Of a stretch of DNA of 23,535 nt, positions 4,180 to 23,535 are shown piece after piece; position 1 is the first letter of the stretch, and each line of letters begins with the position of its first letter. Origin of the DNA: a virus (taxonomy: Duplodnaviria; Heunggongvirae; Uroviricota; Caudoviricetes); IMG/VR virus record IMGVR_UViG_2859799533_000003, positions 1 through 23,535 of that record, one strand, 5' to 3'. The position numbers and the translations under genes are program-made. Under the pieces are notes generated by a model. That model had not been told where the DNA came from. It saw only the letters and a program-made list of their open reading frames with translations, and did not search any database.

Positions 4180-4827
4180 GTGACTGTGAGAGCACTACTG
4201 ACCCCTGAAATTGCCCCGCGTATGGGGATCGTATTGTTCAGACCAGGTTCAGAGCTGATGCCCCTGTTTATGCAGGGGCGTGTCCTGCTGGAGCCTGAGC
4301 CGGAGCGTTATTCATCTTTCGCCAGTGGTGCCGTTCCGGCGGCATCACAACCGCTGGCGGATGATCCTGCCGTTCGGGCCGTGTTCCGCAATGAGGAAGT
4401 GATCCGTCGTGCTGGTGGCGTGGAATGTCTTGAAAGCTGGTTACTTCGTGAAAAAGGCTGCCAGTGGCCTCATTCCGACTGGCACAGCGAGAACATGACC
4501 ACAATGCGACACGCTCCGGGTGCAATCCGTCTGTGCTGGCACTGCGATAATCAGCTGCGCGATCAGTTCACGGAACGGCTGGAATCAATGGCAACGGATA
4601 ACTGTGCCCGCTGGGTGTTGTCTGTTGTGCGTCGGGATCTCGGTTTTGATGACAGTCACGTTGTGACAATGCCGGAACTGTGCTGGTGGCTGATTCGTAA
4701 TGATCTGGCGGATGCCTTACCGGAAAGTGCAGCCCGTAAGGCACTGAGATTACCGAAGCCTGTTGTGCCGACTGTTACCCGGGAAAGTGACCTTGTGCCT
4801 TCGGTTCCTGCCACCAGCATCATCTAG
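4180..4827 (+). CDS. hypothetical phage protein (215 aa, GTG start; Cys/His-rich central region)
   Basis: Long ORF in nin-like region; CQWPHSDWHSENMTTMRHAPGAIRLCWHCDN cluster; start codon uncertain (GTG 4180 or ATG 4222). Confidence 0.4.
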   Translation: MTVRALLTPEIAPRMGIVLFRPGSELMPLFMQGRVLLEPEPERYSSFASGAVPAASQPLADDPAVRAVFRNEEVIRRAGGVECLESWLLREKGCQWPHSDWHSENMTTMRHAPGAIRLCWHCDNQLRDQFTERLESMATDNCARWVLSVVRRDLGFDDSHVVTMPELCWWLIRNDLADALPESAARKALRLPKPVVPTVTRESDLVPSVPATSII

Positions 4828-4842
4828 GATAAGGCGAAAAAG

Positions 4843-5175
4843 GTGCTGGCGCTGAAAGTGGATCCGGAGTCGCCGGAGTCTTTTATGTTACGCCCAAAAC
4901 GTCGCCGCTGGGTTAATGAAAAGTACACGCGCTGGGTTAAGACACAGCCGTGTGCATGTTGTGGAAAGCCCGCTGATGATCCCCACCACCTGATAGGTCA
5001 CGGTCAGGGTGGAATGGGAACAAAAGCGCATGACCTTTTTGTGTTGCCTTTGTGCAGAAAACACCATGACGAACTGCATGCGGATACCGTGGCATTTGAA
5101 GAGAAGTATGGCTCCCAACTGGAGCTGATATTTCGTTTTATCGATCGCGCGCTGGCGATTGGTGTGCTGTCCTGA
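4843..5175 (+). CDS. DUF1364 (YbcO-like) Cys/His-motif protein, putative nuclease
   Basis: Motif pattern CACCG...HHLIGHGQGGMGTKAHDLFVLPLCRKHHDELH matches recalled YbcO family of lambdoid nin regions; GTG start at 4843 or ATG at 4885. Confidence 0.55.
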   Translation: MLALKVDPESPESFMLRPKRRRWVNEKYTRWVKTQPCACCGKPADDPHHLIGHGQGGMGTKAHDLFVLPLCRKHHDELHADTVAFEEKYGSQLELIFRFIDRALAIGVLS

Positions 5176-5192
5176 TTTTGTGGAGAAAGTTG

Positions 5193-5573
5193 ATGCGTGA
5201 TATTCAGATGGTTCTTGAACGCTGGGGGGCATGGGCTGCAAGTGGTAACACCGGGGTGGACTATTCTCCGATCGCTGCCGGATTCAAAGGACTTTTACCA
5301 TCTGCCACTAAACCACGTCCGGCCTGCTGCGATGATGACGGACTTATCATTGAAAACTGTCTTGCTCGTCTGAAGCAGAAAAAACCTGAGGAGTATTCGC
5401 TTCTCATTGCTCATTATTTGTTGCGAATATCAAAAAGACAGATAGCCAGGACGAGAAAGAAAAGCGAAAAAGCAATACGAATTGAGATGCAGATAGCCGA
5501 AGGGTTTATTGACGGATGTTTGTCTGTGCTGGGGGTAAGACTGGAGATGGACGACTGGCTGCTAAAAAAGTAA
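5193..5573 (+). CDS. Q: late-gene antiterminator, Q-like (short Stx-phage/phage-21 type)
   Basis: 126-aa ORF from ATG 5193 with GGAGA SD; N-terminus MRDIQMVLERWGAWAA resembles Q of Stx/lambdoid phages; followed by terminator-like hairpin and tRNA/late region as in Stx phages. Confidence 0.6.
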   Translation: MRDIQMVLERWGAWAASGNTGVDYSPIAAGFKGLLPSATKPRPACCDDDGLIIENCLARLKQKKPEEYSLLIAHYLLRISKRQIARTRKKSEKAIRIEMQIAEGFIDGCLSVLGVRLEMDDWLLKK

Positions 5574-5787: not shown

Positions 5788-5985
5788 ATGCTGAAACAGC
5801 AGGATATGACAGAAACCGCCAGAGTGGTGTTTAATGAATTAAGCGTCACCGAACCGGCGATAGTCGGGGAGATTGCGCAGAATACTTACCTTTCACGCGA
5901 ACGCTGTCAGTTAATACTGACCCAACTTGTTATGGCGGGTCTGGCAGACTATCAGTTCGGTTGTTACAGACGCCTTCAGTCCTGA
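5788..5985 (+). CDS. hypothetical small protein (66 aa)
   Basis: ATG 5788 preceded by ggaaaaggga SD-like purine run; immediately followed by a strong terminator. Confidence 0.4.
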   Translation: MLKQQDMTETARVVFNELSVTEPAIVGEIAQNTYLSRERCQLILTQLVMAGLADYQFGCYRRLQS

Positions 5986-5999
5986 AGGCTTTTTTATTT
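5972..5999 (+). terminator. rho-independent terminator
   Basis: 7-bp stem gccttca/tgaaggc (5972-5978 / 5983-5989), 4-nt loop, then ttttttattt. Confidence 0.55.
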
Positions 6000-6012
6000 G
6001 TGGTAAATGGGC

Positions 6013-6043
6013 GGCTGGTGGGTGTTAGGGGCACCCACCAGCC
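6013..6043. repeat. perfect 12-bp inverted repeat (hairpin) with 7-nt loop, no T tract
   Basis: ggctggtgggtg (6013-6024) ttagggg cacccaccagcc (6032-6043); read directly. Confidence 0.7.
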
Positions 6044-6135
6044 ATCTGCTCATGCGTTGGGTTCACAAGCAAACCTCAGGCCCACTGCTTTGCGCAAAAG
6101 CAGAATGAGCCTATCAGAGACAGGTTTAATGATCC

Positions 6136-7185
6136 ATGCTTAATACTGTAAAAATATCCAGTTGTGAGTTAATCAACGCCGACTGCCTGGAATTTATCCG
6201 GTCGTTACCCGAAAATTCTGTTGACCTGATAGTCACGGACCCGCCGTACTTTAAAGTGAAGCCTGAGGGCTGGGATAACCAGTGGAAGGGCGACGATGAT
6301 TACCTGAAGTGGCTGGAGCAGTGTCTGGCGCAGTTCTGGCGGGTGCTGAAACCTGCCGGAAGTCTTTACCTGTTCTGTGGTCATCGCCTGGCATCTGATA
6401 TCGAAATCATGATGCGTGAACGCTTCAGTGTGCTGAACCATATTATCTGAGCGAAGCCGTCCGGACGCTGGAACGGATGCAACAAGGAAAGCCTGCGGGC
6501 GTATTTCCCCGCCACAGAGCGCATTCTGTTCGCGGAACATTATCAGGGGCCGTACCGCCCGAAAGATGATGGCTATGAGGCGAAGGGCAGGGTACTGAAA
6601 CAGCATGTGATGGCCCCGCTGATTTCTTACTTTCGTGATGCGCGAGCTGCCCTGGGGATAACGGCAAAACAGATTGCAGATGCCACAGGAAAGAAAAACA
6701 TGGTGTCGCACTGGTTCAGTGCCAGTCAGTGGCAGTTGCCGAATGAAAGCGATTATCTGAAATTACAGGCGCTGTTTGCCCGGGTGGCAGAAGAGAAACA
6801 TCAGCGGAGAGAACTGGAAAAGTCCCATTACCAACTGGTCAGCACATACAGTGAGCTGAGCCGGCAGTATATGGAACTGCTGAGTGAATATAAAAATTTG
6901 CGGAGGTATTTCGGTGTGACGGTGCAGGTGCCGTACACCGATGTGTGGACGTATAAACCGGTGCAGTACTATCCAGGGAAACATCCGTGCGAAAAACCGG
7001 CAGAAATGTTGCAGCAGATAATCAACGCGAGCAGTCGTCCGGGAGACCAGGTTGCAGATTTTTTTATGGGCTCAGGTTCAACGGTAAAAGCGGCACTGGC
7101 GCTCGGGCGTCGTGCGATTGGCGTTGAACTGGAGACCGGACGTTTTGAGCAGACAGTCAGGGAAGTTCAGGATTTAATCGTTTGA
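6136..7185 (+). pseudogene. DNA methyltransferase (N6A/N4C type: DPPY motif then FxGxG SAM motif) interrupted by an in-frame TGA at 6448-6450
   Basis: ORFs 6136-6450 and 6607-7185 are in the same frame and the frame stays open from 6451; motifs VTDPPYF (N-terminal) and FFMGSGST (C-terminal). Confidence 0.7.
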
Positions 7186-7234: not shown

Positions 7235-7310
7235 GGCCCTTTAGCTCAGTGGTGAGAGCGAGCGACTCATAATCGCCAGGTCGCTGGTTCAAATCCAGCA
7301 AGGGCCACCA
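7235..7310 (+). tRNA. ileZ: tRNA-Ile2 (anticodon CAU, lysidine-type; Met cannot be excluded)
   Basis: 76 nt, perfect 7-bp acceptor and T stems, anticodon loop ctCATaa, encoded CCA; closely resembles recalled E. coli ileX. Symbol by synteny with Stx-phage tRNA trio. Confidence 0.8.
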
Positions 7311-7317
7311 TCACATA

Positions 7318-7391
7318 CCGCCATTAGCTCATCAGGAAAGAGCGCCAGCCTTCGAAGCTGGTTGCGCGGAGTTCGGGTCCCCGAAGGCGGT
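7318..7391 (+). tRNA. argN: tRNA-Arg (anticodon UCG), slightly non-canonical stems
   Basis: Cloverleaf folded by hand: D stem gctc/gagc, anticodon stem ccagc/gctgg, loop ctTCGaa; one mismatch each in acceptor and T stems; no encoded CCA. Symbol by synteny only. Confidence 0.55.
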
Positions 7392-7407
7392 TCATTATCT
7401 GTATCCT

Positions 7408-7484
7408 GCGTTGTTAGCTCAGCCGGACAGAGCAATTGCCTTCTAAGCAATCGGTCACTGGTTCGAATACAGTAGAACGCGCCA
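7408..7484 (+). tRNA. argO: tRNA-Arg (anticodon UCU)
   Basis: D stem gctc/gagc, anticodon stem attgc/gcaat, loop ctTCTaa, T loop ttcgaat, encoded CCA. Symbol by synteny only. Confidence 0.7.
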
Positions 7485-7734
7485 CACTTATTTTCCCTGG
7501 CTCGCTTTTGCGGGCTTTTTTTTAAATGTCTCACAATTCAGGCGGTTGACTGTTGTCTGGTTTGCGGGGAGTTTGTTAAAAGAAACTGGCATGGTGAATC
7601 CCCCTGTGCGGAGGGGCAATCAGCAACTGGTGTTTTGTCCCGACCCTTATCCTTTCTGTGCGGGTTCAGGTGCTGATACTGAACTCACCGGGAGGCACCC
7701 GGCACCATGCAATGGCACATAGCGCCACTCTCCA

Positions 7735-7760
7735 GCCCCTCTCCGGAGGGGCTTTCTTAT
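7735..7760 (+). terminator. terminator-like GC hairpin with T-rich tail in the tRNA to nanS-p intergenic region
   Basis: gcccctc tccg gaggggc (7735-7752) followed by tttcttat. Confidence 0.4.
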
Positions 7761-7986
7761 GGACAAAAAAATCCCGCGCTGGGAGACGCGGGCGGCAAGG
7801 AATAAACAACAAAACGTGAAGTAATATTTCAGCTGGCGAATAATATCCGACAGTAATCACTCTGCGCAATAGCGCGGCCTTTTTCATATTGCGGGCTGTT
7901 GTCTATCTTCTGCCATTGTCCTGTAACTTCCGGACTTCAGCCCGCTCCTCATTTTACTCACAATATTATCCAGGCCGGGAGGATTC

Positions 7987-16757: not shown

Positions 16758-17780
16758 TTGTTTACGACCCGCCAGTTACTCGGTTATACCGAACAAAAAG
16801 TGAAATTCCGTGCGCTGTTTCTGGAGCTGTTTTTCCGCCGTACGGTGAATTTCCACACCGAAGAGGTGATGCTGGACAAAATTACCGGAAAAACGCCGGT
16901 GGCGGCCTATGTCTCCCCGATCGTTGAAGGAAAAGTGCTTCGCCATCGCGGTGGTGAAACCCGCGTGTTACGTCCGGGCTACGTCAAGCCGAAACACGAA
17001 TTTAATTACCAGCAGGCGGTTGAGCGCCTTCCTGGTGAAGATCCGGCTCAGCTGAACGACCCGGCCTACCGTCGTCTGCGTATCATTACCGATAACCTCA
17101 AACAGGAAGAGCACGCCATTGTCCAGGTGGAAGAAATGCAGGCGGTGAATGCCGTGCTGTATGGCAAATACACCATGGAAGGGGATCAGTTTGATACTGT
17201 CGAGGTGGATTTCGGGCGCTCTGAAGGAAATAACATTGAGCAGGCTGACGGTAAAAAATGGTCTGAGCAGGACCGTGATACGTTTGATCCGACGCATGAT
17301 ATTGACCTCTACTGCGATCAGGCCAGCGGCCTTGTGAATATCGCCATTATGGACGGTACGGTCTGGCGTCTGCTGAATGGCTTTAAGCTGTTCCGCGAAA
17401 AACTGGATACCCGTCGCGGCTCAAATTCACAACTCGAAACGGCAGTGAAAGATCTGGGCGCAGTGGTGTCCTTCAAGGGGTATTACGGCGATCTGGCCAT
17501 TGTGGTGGCGAAAACGTCTTATGTGGCAGAGGACGGTACCGAAAAACGTTATCTGCCGGAGGGCATGCTGGTGCTGGGGAATACGGCGGCAGAGGGGATT
17601 CGTTGCTATGGTGCCATTAAGGATGCACAGGCGTTGTCTGAAGGAGTGGTGGCTTCTTCCCGTTACCCGAAACACTGGCTGACCGTGGGCGATCCGTCCT
17701 GTGAATTCACCATGACGCAGTCCGCTCCGCTGATGGTGCTGCCGGATCCGGATGAGTTTGTGGTGGTACAGGTGAAATAA
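16758..17780 (+). CDS. E: major capsid protein (lambda gpE-like); 5' end abuts IS629, native start and RBS replaced
   Basis: 340-aa ORF collinear with recalled lambda E (FTTRQLL ... SPIVEGKVLRHRGG ... KLDTRRGSNSQLETAVKDLG ... SAPLMVLPDPDEFVVVQVK); ORF begins at TTG 3 bp after the IS629 terminus. Confidence 0.85.
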   Translation: MFTTRQLLGYTEQKVKFRALFLELFFRRTVNFHTEEVMLDKITGKTPVAAYVSPIVEGKVLRHRGGETRVLRPGYVKPKHEFNYQQAVERLPGEDPAQLNDPAYRRLRIITDNLKQEEHAIVQVEEMQAVNAVLYGKYTMEGDQFDTVEVDFGRSEGNNIEQADGKKWSEQDRDTFDPTHDIDLYCDQASGLVNIAIMDGTVWRLLNGFKLFREKLDTRRGSNSQLETAVKDLGAVVSFKGYYGDLAIVVAKTSYVAEDGTEKRYLPEGMLVLGNTAAEGIRCYGAIKDAQALSEGVVASSRYPKHWLTVGDPSCEFTMTQSAPLMVLPDPDEFVVVQVK

Positions 17781-20703: not shown

Positions 20704-21143
20704 ACTTTGCCCTCAGACTGGCGCGTGAGATGGGGAGACTCGACTGGCGCGCCATGCTTGCCGGGATGACATCCACCGAATATGCCGACTGGCACCGTTT
20801 TTACCGCACGCATTATTTTCAGGATACCCAGCTGGATATGCATTTTTCCGGGCTGACGTACGCTGTACTCAGCCTGTTTTTTTGCGATCCGGATATGCAT
20901 CCCTCTGATTTCAGTCTGCTTGTCCCCCGGCATGAGGAAGAGCAGGTGGAGAGGCCGGATGAGGACAAAATGCTGATGCAGAAAGCGGCAGGACTTGCCG
21001 GAGGCGTCCGGTTCGGTGGGGACGGAGGGCGCGATATTTTATCGTCTGCGGATGTGGCGGATGTCATGGTGGATGATGCCGCATTAATGATGGCTTCAGC
21101 GGGGATTCCGGGAGGTGTGAGATATGTCCCAGCCGGTTGGTGA
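20272..21143 (+). CDS. GT: G-T fusion tail assembly protein made by programmed -1 frameshift
   Basis: Slippery heptamer G GGA AAG in the G frame at 20679-20685; -1 frame continues GKVFDGELNFALRLAREMGRLDWRAMLAGM... matching recalled lambda T. Confidence 0.7.
20679..20685 (+). other. programmed -1 ribosomal frameshift slippery site (GGGAAAG)
   Basis: Heptamer in register with G codons (G GGA AAG), 6 codons before the G stop; conserved lambda-type G/GT recoding signal. Confidence 0.7.
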
Positions 21144-22873
21144 TCTTGTTATTGACCTGAGTCTGGATGCTGTCCGTTTCGATGAGCAGATGAGCCGGGT
21201 AAGGCGTCATTTTTCAGGTCTGGATACCGACGCCAGAAAAACCGCCAGTGCTGTTGAACAGGGCCTGAGCCGCCAGGCGCTGGCTGCACAAAAAGCCGGG
21301 ATTTCCGTCGGGCAGTATAAAGCGGCCATGCGAACCCTGCCCGCACAGTTTACGGATATCGCCACGCAGCTTGCAGGTGGTCAGAATCCCTGGCTGATCC
21401 TGCTGCAACAGGGCGGTCAGGTGAAGGACTCCTTCGGCGGGATGATCCCCATGTTCAGGGGGCTTGCCGGTGCGATCACCCTGCCGATGGTCGGGGTCAC
21501 CTCGCTGGCGGTGGCGACAGGTGCGCTGGTGTACGCCTGGTACCAGGGAGATTCCACGCTTTCAGCGTTTAATAAAACCCTGGTTCTTTCCGGTAATCAG
21601 TCCGGACTGACTGCCGATCGTATGCTGACTCTCTCAAGAGCCGGGCAGGCAGCAGGGCTGACGTTTAACCAGGCGAAAGAGTCACTGGCAGCCCTGGTGA
21701 ATGCCGGTGTGCGTGGTGGTGAACAGTTTGATGCCATCAACCAGAGTGTCGCGCGTTTTGCGTCTGCATCCGGTGTGGAGGTGGATAAAGTCGCTGAAGC
21801 CTTCGGGAAGCTGACCACTGACCCGACGTCGGGACTGATGGCGATGGCGCGCCAGTTCCGTAACGTGACGGCAGAGCAGATTGCGTATGTTGCACAGCTG
21901 CAGCGTTCCGGAGACGAGGCCGGGGCATTGCAGGCGGCGAACGATATCGCCACGAAAGGCTTTGATGAGCAGACCCGTCGCCTGAAAGAAAACATGGGAA
22001 CACTGGAGACCTGGGCGGATAAAACAGGGAAGGCATTCAAATCGATGTGGGATGCCATTCTGGATATCGGTCGTCCTGAATCCTCAGCGGATATGCTCGC
22101 CAGTGCGCAGAAGGCATTTGATGAGGCGGATAAAAAATGGCAGTGGTACCAGAGCCGGAGCCAGCGCCGGGGAAAGACCTCCTCTTTTCGTGCGAACCTT
22201 CAGGGGGCATGGGATGACCGGGAAAATGCCCGTCTGGGTCTGGCAGCGGCCACGCTGCAGTCGGATATGGAAAAAGCCGGTGAACTGGCGGCAAGGGACC
22301 GGGCTGAGCGTGAGGCGTCACAGCTGAAGTATACCGGAGAGGCGCAGAAGGCGTATGAGCGCCTGCAGACGCCGCTGGATAAATATACCGCCCGTCAGAA
22401 AGAGCTGAATAAGGCCCTGAAAGACGGAAAAATCCTGCAGGCGGATTGCAACACGCTGATGGCGTCGGCAAAAAAGGATTATGAATAGACGCTGAAAAAG
22501 CCGTCCGGTGTGAAGGTGTCTGCCGGTGAGCGCCAGGAAGACCGGGCGCATGCAGCCATGCTGGCGCTTGAAACCGAGCTCAGGACGCTGGAAAAACACA
22601 GCGGTGTGAATGAGAAAATCAGCCAGCAGCGCCGGGATTTATGGGAAGCGGAAAATCAGTATGTGGTCCTGAAAGAGGCCGCCACGAAACGGCAGTTATC
22701 TGAGCAGGAAAAATCCCTGCTGGCTCATGAGAAAGAGACGCTGGAGTACAAACGCCAGCTGGCTGAGCTGGGAGACAAGATTGAACACCAGAAGCGGCTG
22801 AATGAGCTGGCACAGCAGGCGGCGCGGTTTGAACAGCAGCAGAGCGCGAAGCAGGCGGCAATCAGCGCAAAAG
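21124..22873 (+). pseudogene. H: tail tape measure protein H-like: in-frame TAG at 22486-22488 and 3' truncation by the IS911-like element at 22874
   Basis: ORF 21124-22488 (N-terminus MSQPVGDLVIDLSLDAVRFDEQMSRV... as in lambda H) continues in the same frame after the TAG; the frame then runs into the IS terminus (tgaagtggtcaac...) at 22874. Confidence 0.75.

Positions 22874-23535
<662 letters not shown>

Follow-up and report, generated by a model that had tools for sequence, protein, structure and literature searches.

A probable inherited nonsense pseudogene of an M.EcoGII-type DNA methyltransferase in a decaying lambdoid prophage of Shigella boydii

Results and Discussion

The methyltransferase gene at positions 6136-7185 of the stretch of viral DNA analyzed here (23,535 nt, hereafter the window) is very probably a pseudogene of the M.EcoGII/M.EcoGI type of beta-class enzymes that carries an inherited W105* mutation and resides in a decaying, Stx-phage-like lambdoid prophage of Shigella boydii. 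A single G-to-A transition converted the codon of the invariant Trp105 from TGG to TGA, ending translation after 104 residues with the DPPY motif kept and the target-recognition region and motif I lost. No active enzyme would be expected from a fragment devoid of target recognition and the SAM-binding motif I. The lesion would have arisen once, on a haplotype with D61E, after which homologous recombination or gene conversion would have placed the allele in three or more prophage backgrounds, two of them within a single chromosome. Both the methyltransferase family and this kind of cryptic prophage are known, public records already contain the locus, and its inactivation by a nonsense mutation is unexceptional. 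The features of the gene and its surroundings are collected in Table 1.

Table 1. Positions in the window of the interrupted methyltransferase gene, its parts and neighboring features.
Feature	Position	Strand	Basis or remark
Antiterminator Q, apparently intact	5178-5573	+	PF06530 positions 1-118/118, E 1.6e-52
Conserved hypothetical ORF, 65 aa, between Q and the methyltransferase gene	5788-5985	+	E. coli prophages, Stx2 phages
Hairpin resembling a terminator (GCCTTCAG / CTGAAGGC) with a trailing T run, upstream of the methyltransferase gene	5972-5997	+	Pattern match only
M.EcoGII-family beta-class N6-adenine DNA methyltransferase pseudogene, whole	6136-7185	+	Translation, PF01555, comparison with M.EcoGII
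N-terminal ORF, 104 codons plus TGA	6136-6450	+	Motif IV kept; without target-recognition domain (TRD) and SAM-binding motif I
DPPY, catalytic motif IV, residues 35-38	6238-6249	+	Read from sequence
Codon 61, GAG (Glu); GAC (Asp) in TGG copies	6316-6318	+	Compared loci
TGA in place of invariant Trp105 (TGG), G-to-A transition at 6450	6448-6450	+	Homologues, loci
Residual C-terminal ORF, 161 aa from ATG 6700; also GTG 6607 or ATG 6610	6700-7185	+	
FMGSGST, SAM-binding motif I (FxGxG), residues 310-316	7063-7083	+	Read from sequence
tRNA trio: CAT, Arg-TCG, Arg-TCT	7235-7484	+	ARAGORN
IS3-family element	orfB 10259-11077	-	
IS110-family element	11232-12407		
IS66-family element, tnpA/B/C	12699-15088	-	
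IS3-family element	orfB 15823-16713		Rfam ALIL frameshift pseudoknot 15781-15897

An interrupted gene of the M.EcoGII family

Translation of the gene yielded 349 codons and a terminal stop with exactly one internal stop, the TGA directly following the sequence ...RERFSVLNHII. The claim of the sequence-only reading that DPPY and FMGSGST lie in one frame and are separated by this TGA only is evident from the translation, with the motifs defined as described (PMC5778455, PMC7544214). The N-terminal fragment matched positions 1-79 of PF01555 (N6_N4_Mtase) and the residual C-terminal ORF, read from GTG 6607, matched positions 111-219; the latter contains motif I and no catalytic motif. The protein with Trp restored matched positions 1-219 of 221 with an E value of 3e-44 and a score of 151.9 bits, above the curated cut-off of 26.7 bits, and is a full-length member of PF01555. 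This span indicates that the N- and C-terminal halves belong to one gene and are not a chance pair of ORFs. The order of motifs, IV (DPPY) followed by the TRD and then I (FxGxG), is that defined for the beta class (PMC7544214). An uninterrupted frame containing both the catalytic and SAM-binding motifs was not found, the TGA intervening at codon 105, and the locus is therefore a member of the M.EcoGII family by descent, yet a pseudogene. An antisense ORF of 168 aa (6205-6711) overlapping the stop had no Pfam match and was judged spurious.

M.EcoGII and M.EcoGI are non-specific adenine DNA methyltransferases from prophages of E. coli O104:H4 C227-11 (Murray et al. 2018, PMC5778455). M.EcoGII is prophage-borne and silent in the lysogen, and the expressed enzyme methylates adenine in any context (PMC5778455). 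It is a beta-class enzyme of 349 aa with an N-terminal DPPY, a central region and a C-terminal FxGxG (PMC5778455; PMC7544214). The repaired protein was identical to M.EcoGII at 331 of 350 positions (∼95%), an approximate figure since the reference copy, obtained from the supplement of PMC11551740, was machine-read and contains OCR errors. The similarity is close and full-length, and the window gene shares with M.EcoGII the length of 349 aa, the order of DPPY, central region and FxGxG, and carriage by a prophage. Unlike M.EcoGII, the window copy has W105* and D61E and resides in a defective prophage of Shigella boydii.

Carriage by lambdoid phages and prophages is likewise shared with relatives in phage 1720a-02 and other enterobacterial phages. 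Phage 1720a-02, previously noted to carry a methyltransferase very similar to M.EcoGII (PMC5778455), was the top phage match to the window gene at 92.3% nucleotide identity, and the remaining phage matches were mostly Stx2-converting phages. The DNA methylases of Stx2 phages (Stx2a phage Stx2_95, LC567838.1; phiP27) showed 84-92% nucleotide identity but, unlike the window copy, are intact (352 aa) and followed by stx2AB. The solved beta-class enzymes (8urk and 9c3u, deposited as 'Methyltransferase'; M.RsrI, 1eg2 and 1nw5; CcrM, 6pbd; M.MboIIA, 1g60) share the PF01555 motifs at both ends and the IIW segment that holds the mutated Trp. They are otherwise only distant (E values of 1e-26 to 1e-14 in two separate matching stretches), are sequence-specific and are without the long central insert found in the M.EcoGII family.

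The ancestral codon

Of 5,426 complete E. coli genomes, 2,642 contain a match to the methyltransferase gene. Among intact copies, the three closest, with nucleotide identities of 98.3-96.7% and annotated as DNA-methyltransferase without a pseudogene label, have TGG at the site of the stop, and TGG versus TGA is the sole difference across the 101 aligned nucleotides around it. Homologues were further represented by 120 clusters with 73-92% identity, drawn from E. coli, Citrobacter, Salmonella, Klebsiella, Cronobacter, Pantoea and others. The column of the stop was occupied by Trp in all 120 representatives, within an invariant or nearly invariant HIIWAKPxGRW block, and Trp105 aligned with the IIW of the distant solved enzymes 8urk, 9c3u and M.RsrI. 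The codon in the nearest copies and the residue in the 120 representatives identify the lesion as W105*, the result of a G-to-A change at 6450. The sequence-only reading had proposed a single change from TGG (Trp) to TGA, which is borne out by the three closest E. coli homologues and by the alignment, where the intact homologues carry Trp at the stop position without exception.

The stop is an inherited allele

An exact match to the 104-aa product was recorded on 134 contigs. The loci fetched among these carriers came from the complete chromosomes CP026866.1 and CP026867.1, the drafts LPTS01000149 and AMKC01000157 and four independent read-set assemblies, and TGA was present in 10 of 10 loci. 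Over the 14,450 nt that could be compared, the window and CP026866.1 were 100% identical. A megablast search of the 5,426 complete E. coli genomes returned no perfect match to the 141 nt around the stop, the best matches being 140/141 in 757 records. The exact 39-nt pattern across the stop was also not found in a one-genome-per-species collection, in which Shigella is presumably scarce or absent. The lack of a perfect E. coli match had suggested a private mutation, a view overturned by the exact protein on 134 contigs.

A sequencing or assembly error at a true TGG codon, which would leave the gene intact, is compatible with a window that is one base apart from hundreds of E. coli copies (the 757 records above). 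Against such an error, TGA was found twice in each of the two complete chromosomes, in both drafts and in the four read-set assemblies, and several of the TGA assemblies differ in flanking haplotype. The probability of an error is considered negligible. TGG in the raw data, raised by the sequence-only reading as the finding that would overturn a broken gene, is contradicted by the independent assemblies and read-set assemblies, all of which have TGA. Judged from these assembled sequences, the stop is a real allele inherited within a Shigella boydii lineage.

The assignment to Shigella boydii is a probable one based on the names attached to exact matches of neighboring proteins. Exact matches to the 564-aa esterase, PerC and phage Dam are named Shigella boydii or Shigella. 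The exact esterase was found on 123 contigs and PerC on 210, numbers of the same order as the 134 for the 104-aa product.

Consequences of the stop for the enzyme

The 104-aa product retains motif IV and is without the central region and motifs I-III, which in class beta are part of the seven-stranded catalytic sheet and the SAM pocket (PMC7544214). Restart of translation at 6607 would skip residues 105-157 containing 18 invariant positions, and restart at 6700 would skip residues 105-188 containing 29, the WAKPSGRW block being lost in this way. These omissions argue against a functional split enzyme composed of the 104-aa N-terminal fragment and a restarted C-terminal fragment, an arrangement suggested by the 161-aa ORF that gene callers predict from ATG 6700, the only one of the possible restarts with an upstream AGGA, albeit weak, and by the finding that beta-class methyltransferases act as dimers (PMC7544214). 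Furthermore, the homologues split at this position are carriers of the W105* allele only, and a split enzyme is regarded as extremely improbable.

The 91 nt downstream of the stop folded no better than shuffled sequence (z = 0.08), revealing no stimulatory RNA structure, and the stop site had no match in Rfam. None of the three phage tRNAs is a UGA suppressor. Programmed read-through or selenocysteine recoding is not indicated, in that homologues have TGG or Trp at the site and a downstream structure is absent. Among the stop codons of E. coli, UGA is the leakiest, and its near-cognate decoding by tRNA-Trp inserts Trp, here the wild-type residue. Trace amounts of full-length enzyme produced by read-through with tRNA-Trp are thus possible in principle. 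The G following UGA105 does not, to our knowledge, create an especially leaky context.

A stronger proposal is that the leaky UGA105 attenuates a harmful gene rather than killing it, with low levels of read-through by tRNA-Trp restoring the ancestral residue. In its favor, all 84 invariant positions elsewhere in the ORF are undamaged, and constitutive expression of M.EcoGII is deleterious (PMC5778455). The absence of a stimulatory structure and of a suppressor among the phage tRNAs oppose it, as does the TGG of the nearest homologues, which marks the stop as newly arisen rather than as a recoding site kept among homologues; moreover, the surrounding prophage is non-viable. Attenuation through a leaky stop is accordingly considered very unlikely, and loss of enzyme function is the best-supported reading of the sequence.

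Position in the late region

The gene lies between Q upstream and the tRNA trio downstream (Table 1), in accord with the location originally claimed for it. Gene callers place the start of Q at 5193, giving a protein of 126 aa that is common in identical form in E. coli. The 65-aa ORF that follows had no Pfam match. The hairpin upstream of the methyltransferase gene is a candidate terminator that Q may allow transcription to read through, and a scan for promoters detected no sigma-70 consensus on the plus strand between Q and the gene. The order in Stx2_95 is ydfU (DUF968), Q, the 65-aa ORF, DNA methylase, three tRNAs, stx2AB and yjhS. The order in the window is the same except that stx is missing between the tRNAs and the esterase gene (yjhS/nanS-p), and no stx gene is present anywhere in the window. 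The synteny with Stx2 phages would place the methyltransferase gene in the Q-dependent late transcript, and late expression, as put forward in the sequence-only reading, is a reasonable expectation by analogy and accords with the reported silence of M.EcoGII in the lysogen (PMC5778455).

The first tRNA (7235-7310, CAT) was called Met by ARAGORN, and the RefSeq homologue in E. coli prophages is tRNA-Ile. A full-length match to the Rfam sRNA family STnc100 (142 bits) is located at 7560-7764, just 3' of the tRNA trio, where it occupies the place of stx2AB in Stx phages. The window also encodes a second phage methyltransferase of another family, PF05869 (phage Dam), an apparently intact protein of 217 aa located at 2310-2963 in the early region.

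Decay of the surrounding prophage

Two neighbors of the methyltransferase gene are also interrupted by in-frame stops. The DUF968/ydfU-like gene (4186-5175) is cut by TAG at 4825-4827, where AMKC01000157 has CAG (Gln) as the sole difference in 990 nt. Since AMKC01000157 already contains the methyltransferase TGA, the lesion in the methyltransferase gene is the older and that in the DUF968 gene the younger. The gene for a NanS-p/YjhS-like sialate O-acetylesterase (7987-9948) is cut by TAA at 8218-8220 into a 77-aa DUF1737 ORF and a 564-aa SASA+DUF6645 ORF, the latter listed as an esterase in Shigella boydii annotations. Both Stx2a phage Stx2_95 and a sister prophage described below have TAC (Tyr) in place of this stop.

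The lysis, terminase, portal and protease genes have been replaced by IS elements between the end of the esterase gene at 9948 and the start of the major capsid gene at 16758, four internal IS elements being clustered within 10039-16713. The window is bounded by inverted copies of an IS3-family element, at 1-662 and 22874-23535, that are 99.85% identical. The right copy truncates the tape-measure gene (21124-22488 and onward). In CP026866.1 the chromosomal genes yecN-cmoA-cmoB lie directly beyond the left copy, which indicates that the immunity region is gone. On the basis of this gene content the prophage is evidently a non-viable remnant and the methyltransferase stop one lesion among many.

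Origin and spread of the allele

The chromosomes CP026866.1 and CP026867.1 each contain two copies of the TGA allele, located in separate prophages. One prophage in each chromosome has the context of the window with a PF06530-type Q, while the other has a PF03589-type antiterminator and has kept a lysis cassette. A third upstream context was found in three read-set contigs bearing the allele. The stop is accompanied by G at 6318 (GAG, Glu61) in each of the 10 loci with TGA, whereas the TGG copies have C at 6318 (Asp); Asp is the residue at position 61 in 117 of the 120 homologues. Markers upstream (5793-6125) and downstream (6555-6593) assort independently of the core formed by TGA and 6318G, and the shared block is therefore at most ∼430 bp, residing within different haplotypes. 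The results are consistent with an allele that arose once and was then transferred among lambdoid prophages through homologous recombination or gene conversion. The initial reading had also allowed that homologues might be naturally split into separate genes here; instead, the copies bearing the stop share a haplotype and represent a single allele of recent date. The stop aside, the ORF conforms to the family at the 84 invariant positions, so that one A-to-G change would restore it. The undamaged state of the remaining ORF fits a recent lesion and equally fits continued constraint.

The sister prophage with the same TGA (CP026866.1, 1863277-1879591; CP026867.1, 173034-189348) is also decaying, with DnaB split into 292 and 163 aa and DUF968 into 275 and 53 aa. 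Its PF03589 antiterminator is 166 aa compared with 273 aa in related contigs. The copy of the window prophage at 918686-935000 of CP026867.1 differs from the window by three substitutions and nine gaps over 14.4 kb, which break the ORFs for the replication protein, Q, esterase and IS66; the differences could be homopolymer indel errors of long reads or real further decay. LPTS01000149.1 joins the upstream context of the sister prophage to the downstream methyltransferase and esterase sequence of the window, and represents either a genuine recombinant prophage or a chimera of short-read assembly across the shared repeat.

The occurrence of one allele twice within a chromosome, in separate prophages, and in three or more backgrounds overall invites the proposal of adaptive silencing, in which the nonsense allele was favored and spread between prophages since the non-specific enzyme became toxic once a remnant had lost its repressor and the control of its late genes. 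The deleted immunity region together with the intact Q of the window remnant, and the toxicity reported on expression of M.EcoGII (PMC5778455), are consistent with this proposal. However, gene conversion among nearly identical lambdoid segments spreads neutral alleles as well, and the two neighboring genes without known toxicity are also nonsense-mutated, as general decay predicts. The DUF968 lesion, being younger than that in the methyltransferase gene, is uninformative on selection. Adaptive silencing is for these reasons considered unlikely. An equally low likelihood is given to the broader view that W105* is either a selected off-switch or a leaky attenuator of a toxic methyltransferase, gene-converted among Shigella boydii remnants after loss of the repressor. 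Specific evidence for a leaky stop or for adaptive silencing is limited to the reported M.EcoGII toxicity and to the allele being duplicated, and gene conversion accounts for the latter neutrally. Inheritance of an inactivating W105* in a decaying prophage is the reading preferred here.

Implications

An intact phage would produce the enzyme late, following antitermination by Q, and the enzyme would methylate adenines in progeny DNA and thereby blunt host restriction. This anti-restriction role on progeny DNA is one that the literature suggests, and would be moot in a prophage unable to produce particles. The locus should be annotated as a pseudogene of an M.EcoGII-type methyltransferase, and in methylome studies of the Shigella boydii lineage no methylation motif is expected from it. 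The importance of the finding beyond annotation is little. Nonetheless, the TGA allele and the linked D61E marker serve to follow recombination among lambdoid prophages residing together, and the otherwise undamaged gene, of a family widely used for chromatin footprinting, would be repaired by one A-to-G reversion.
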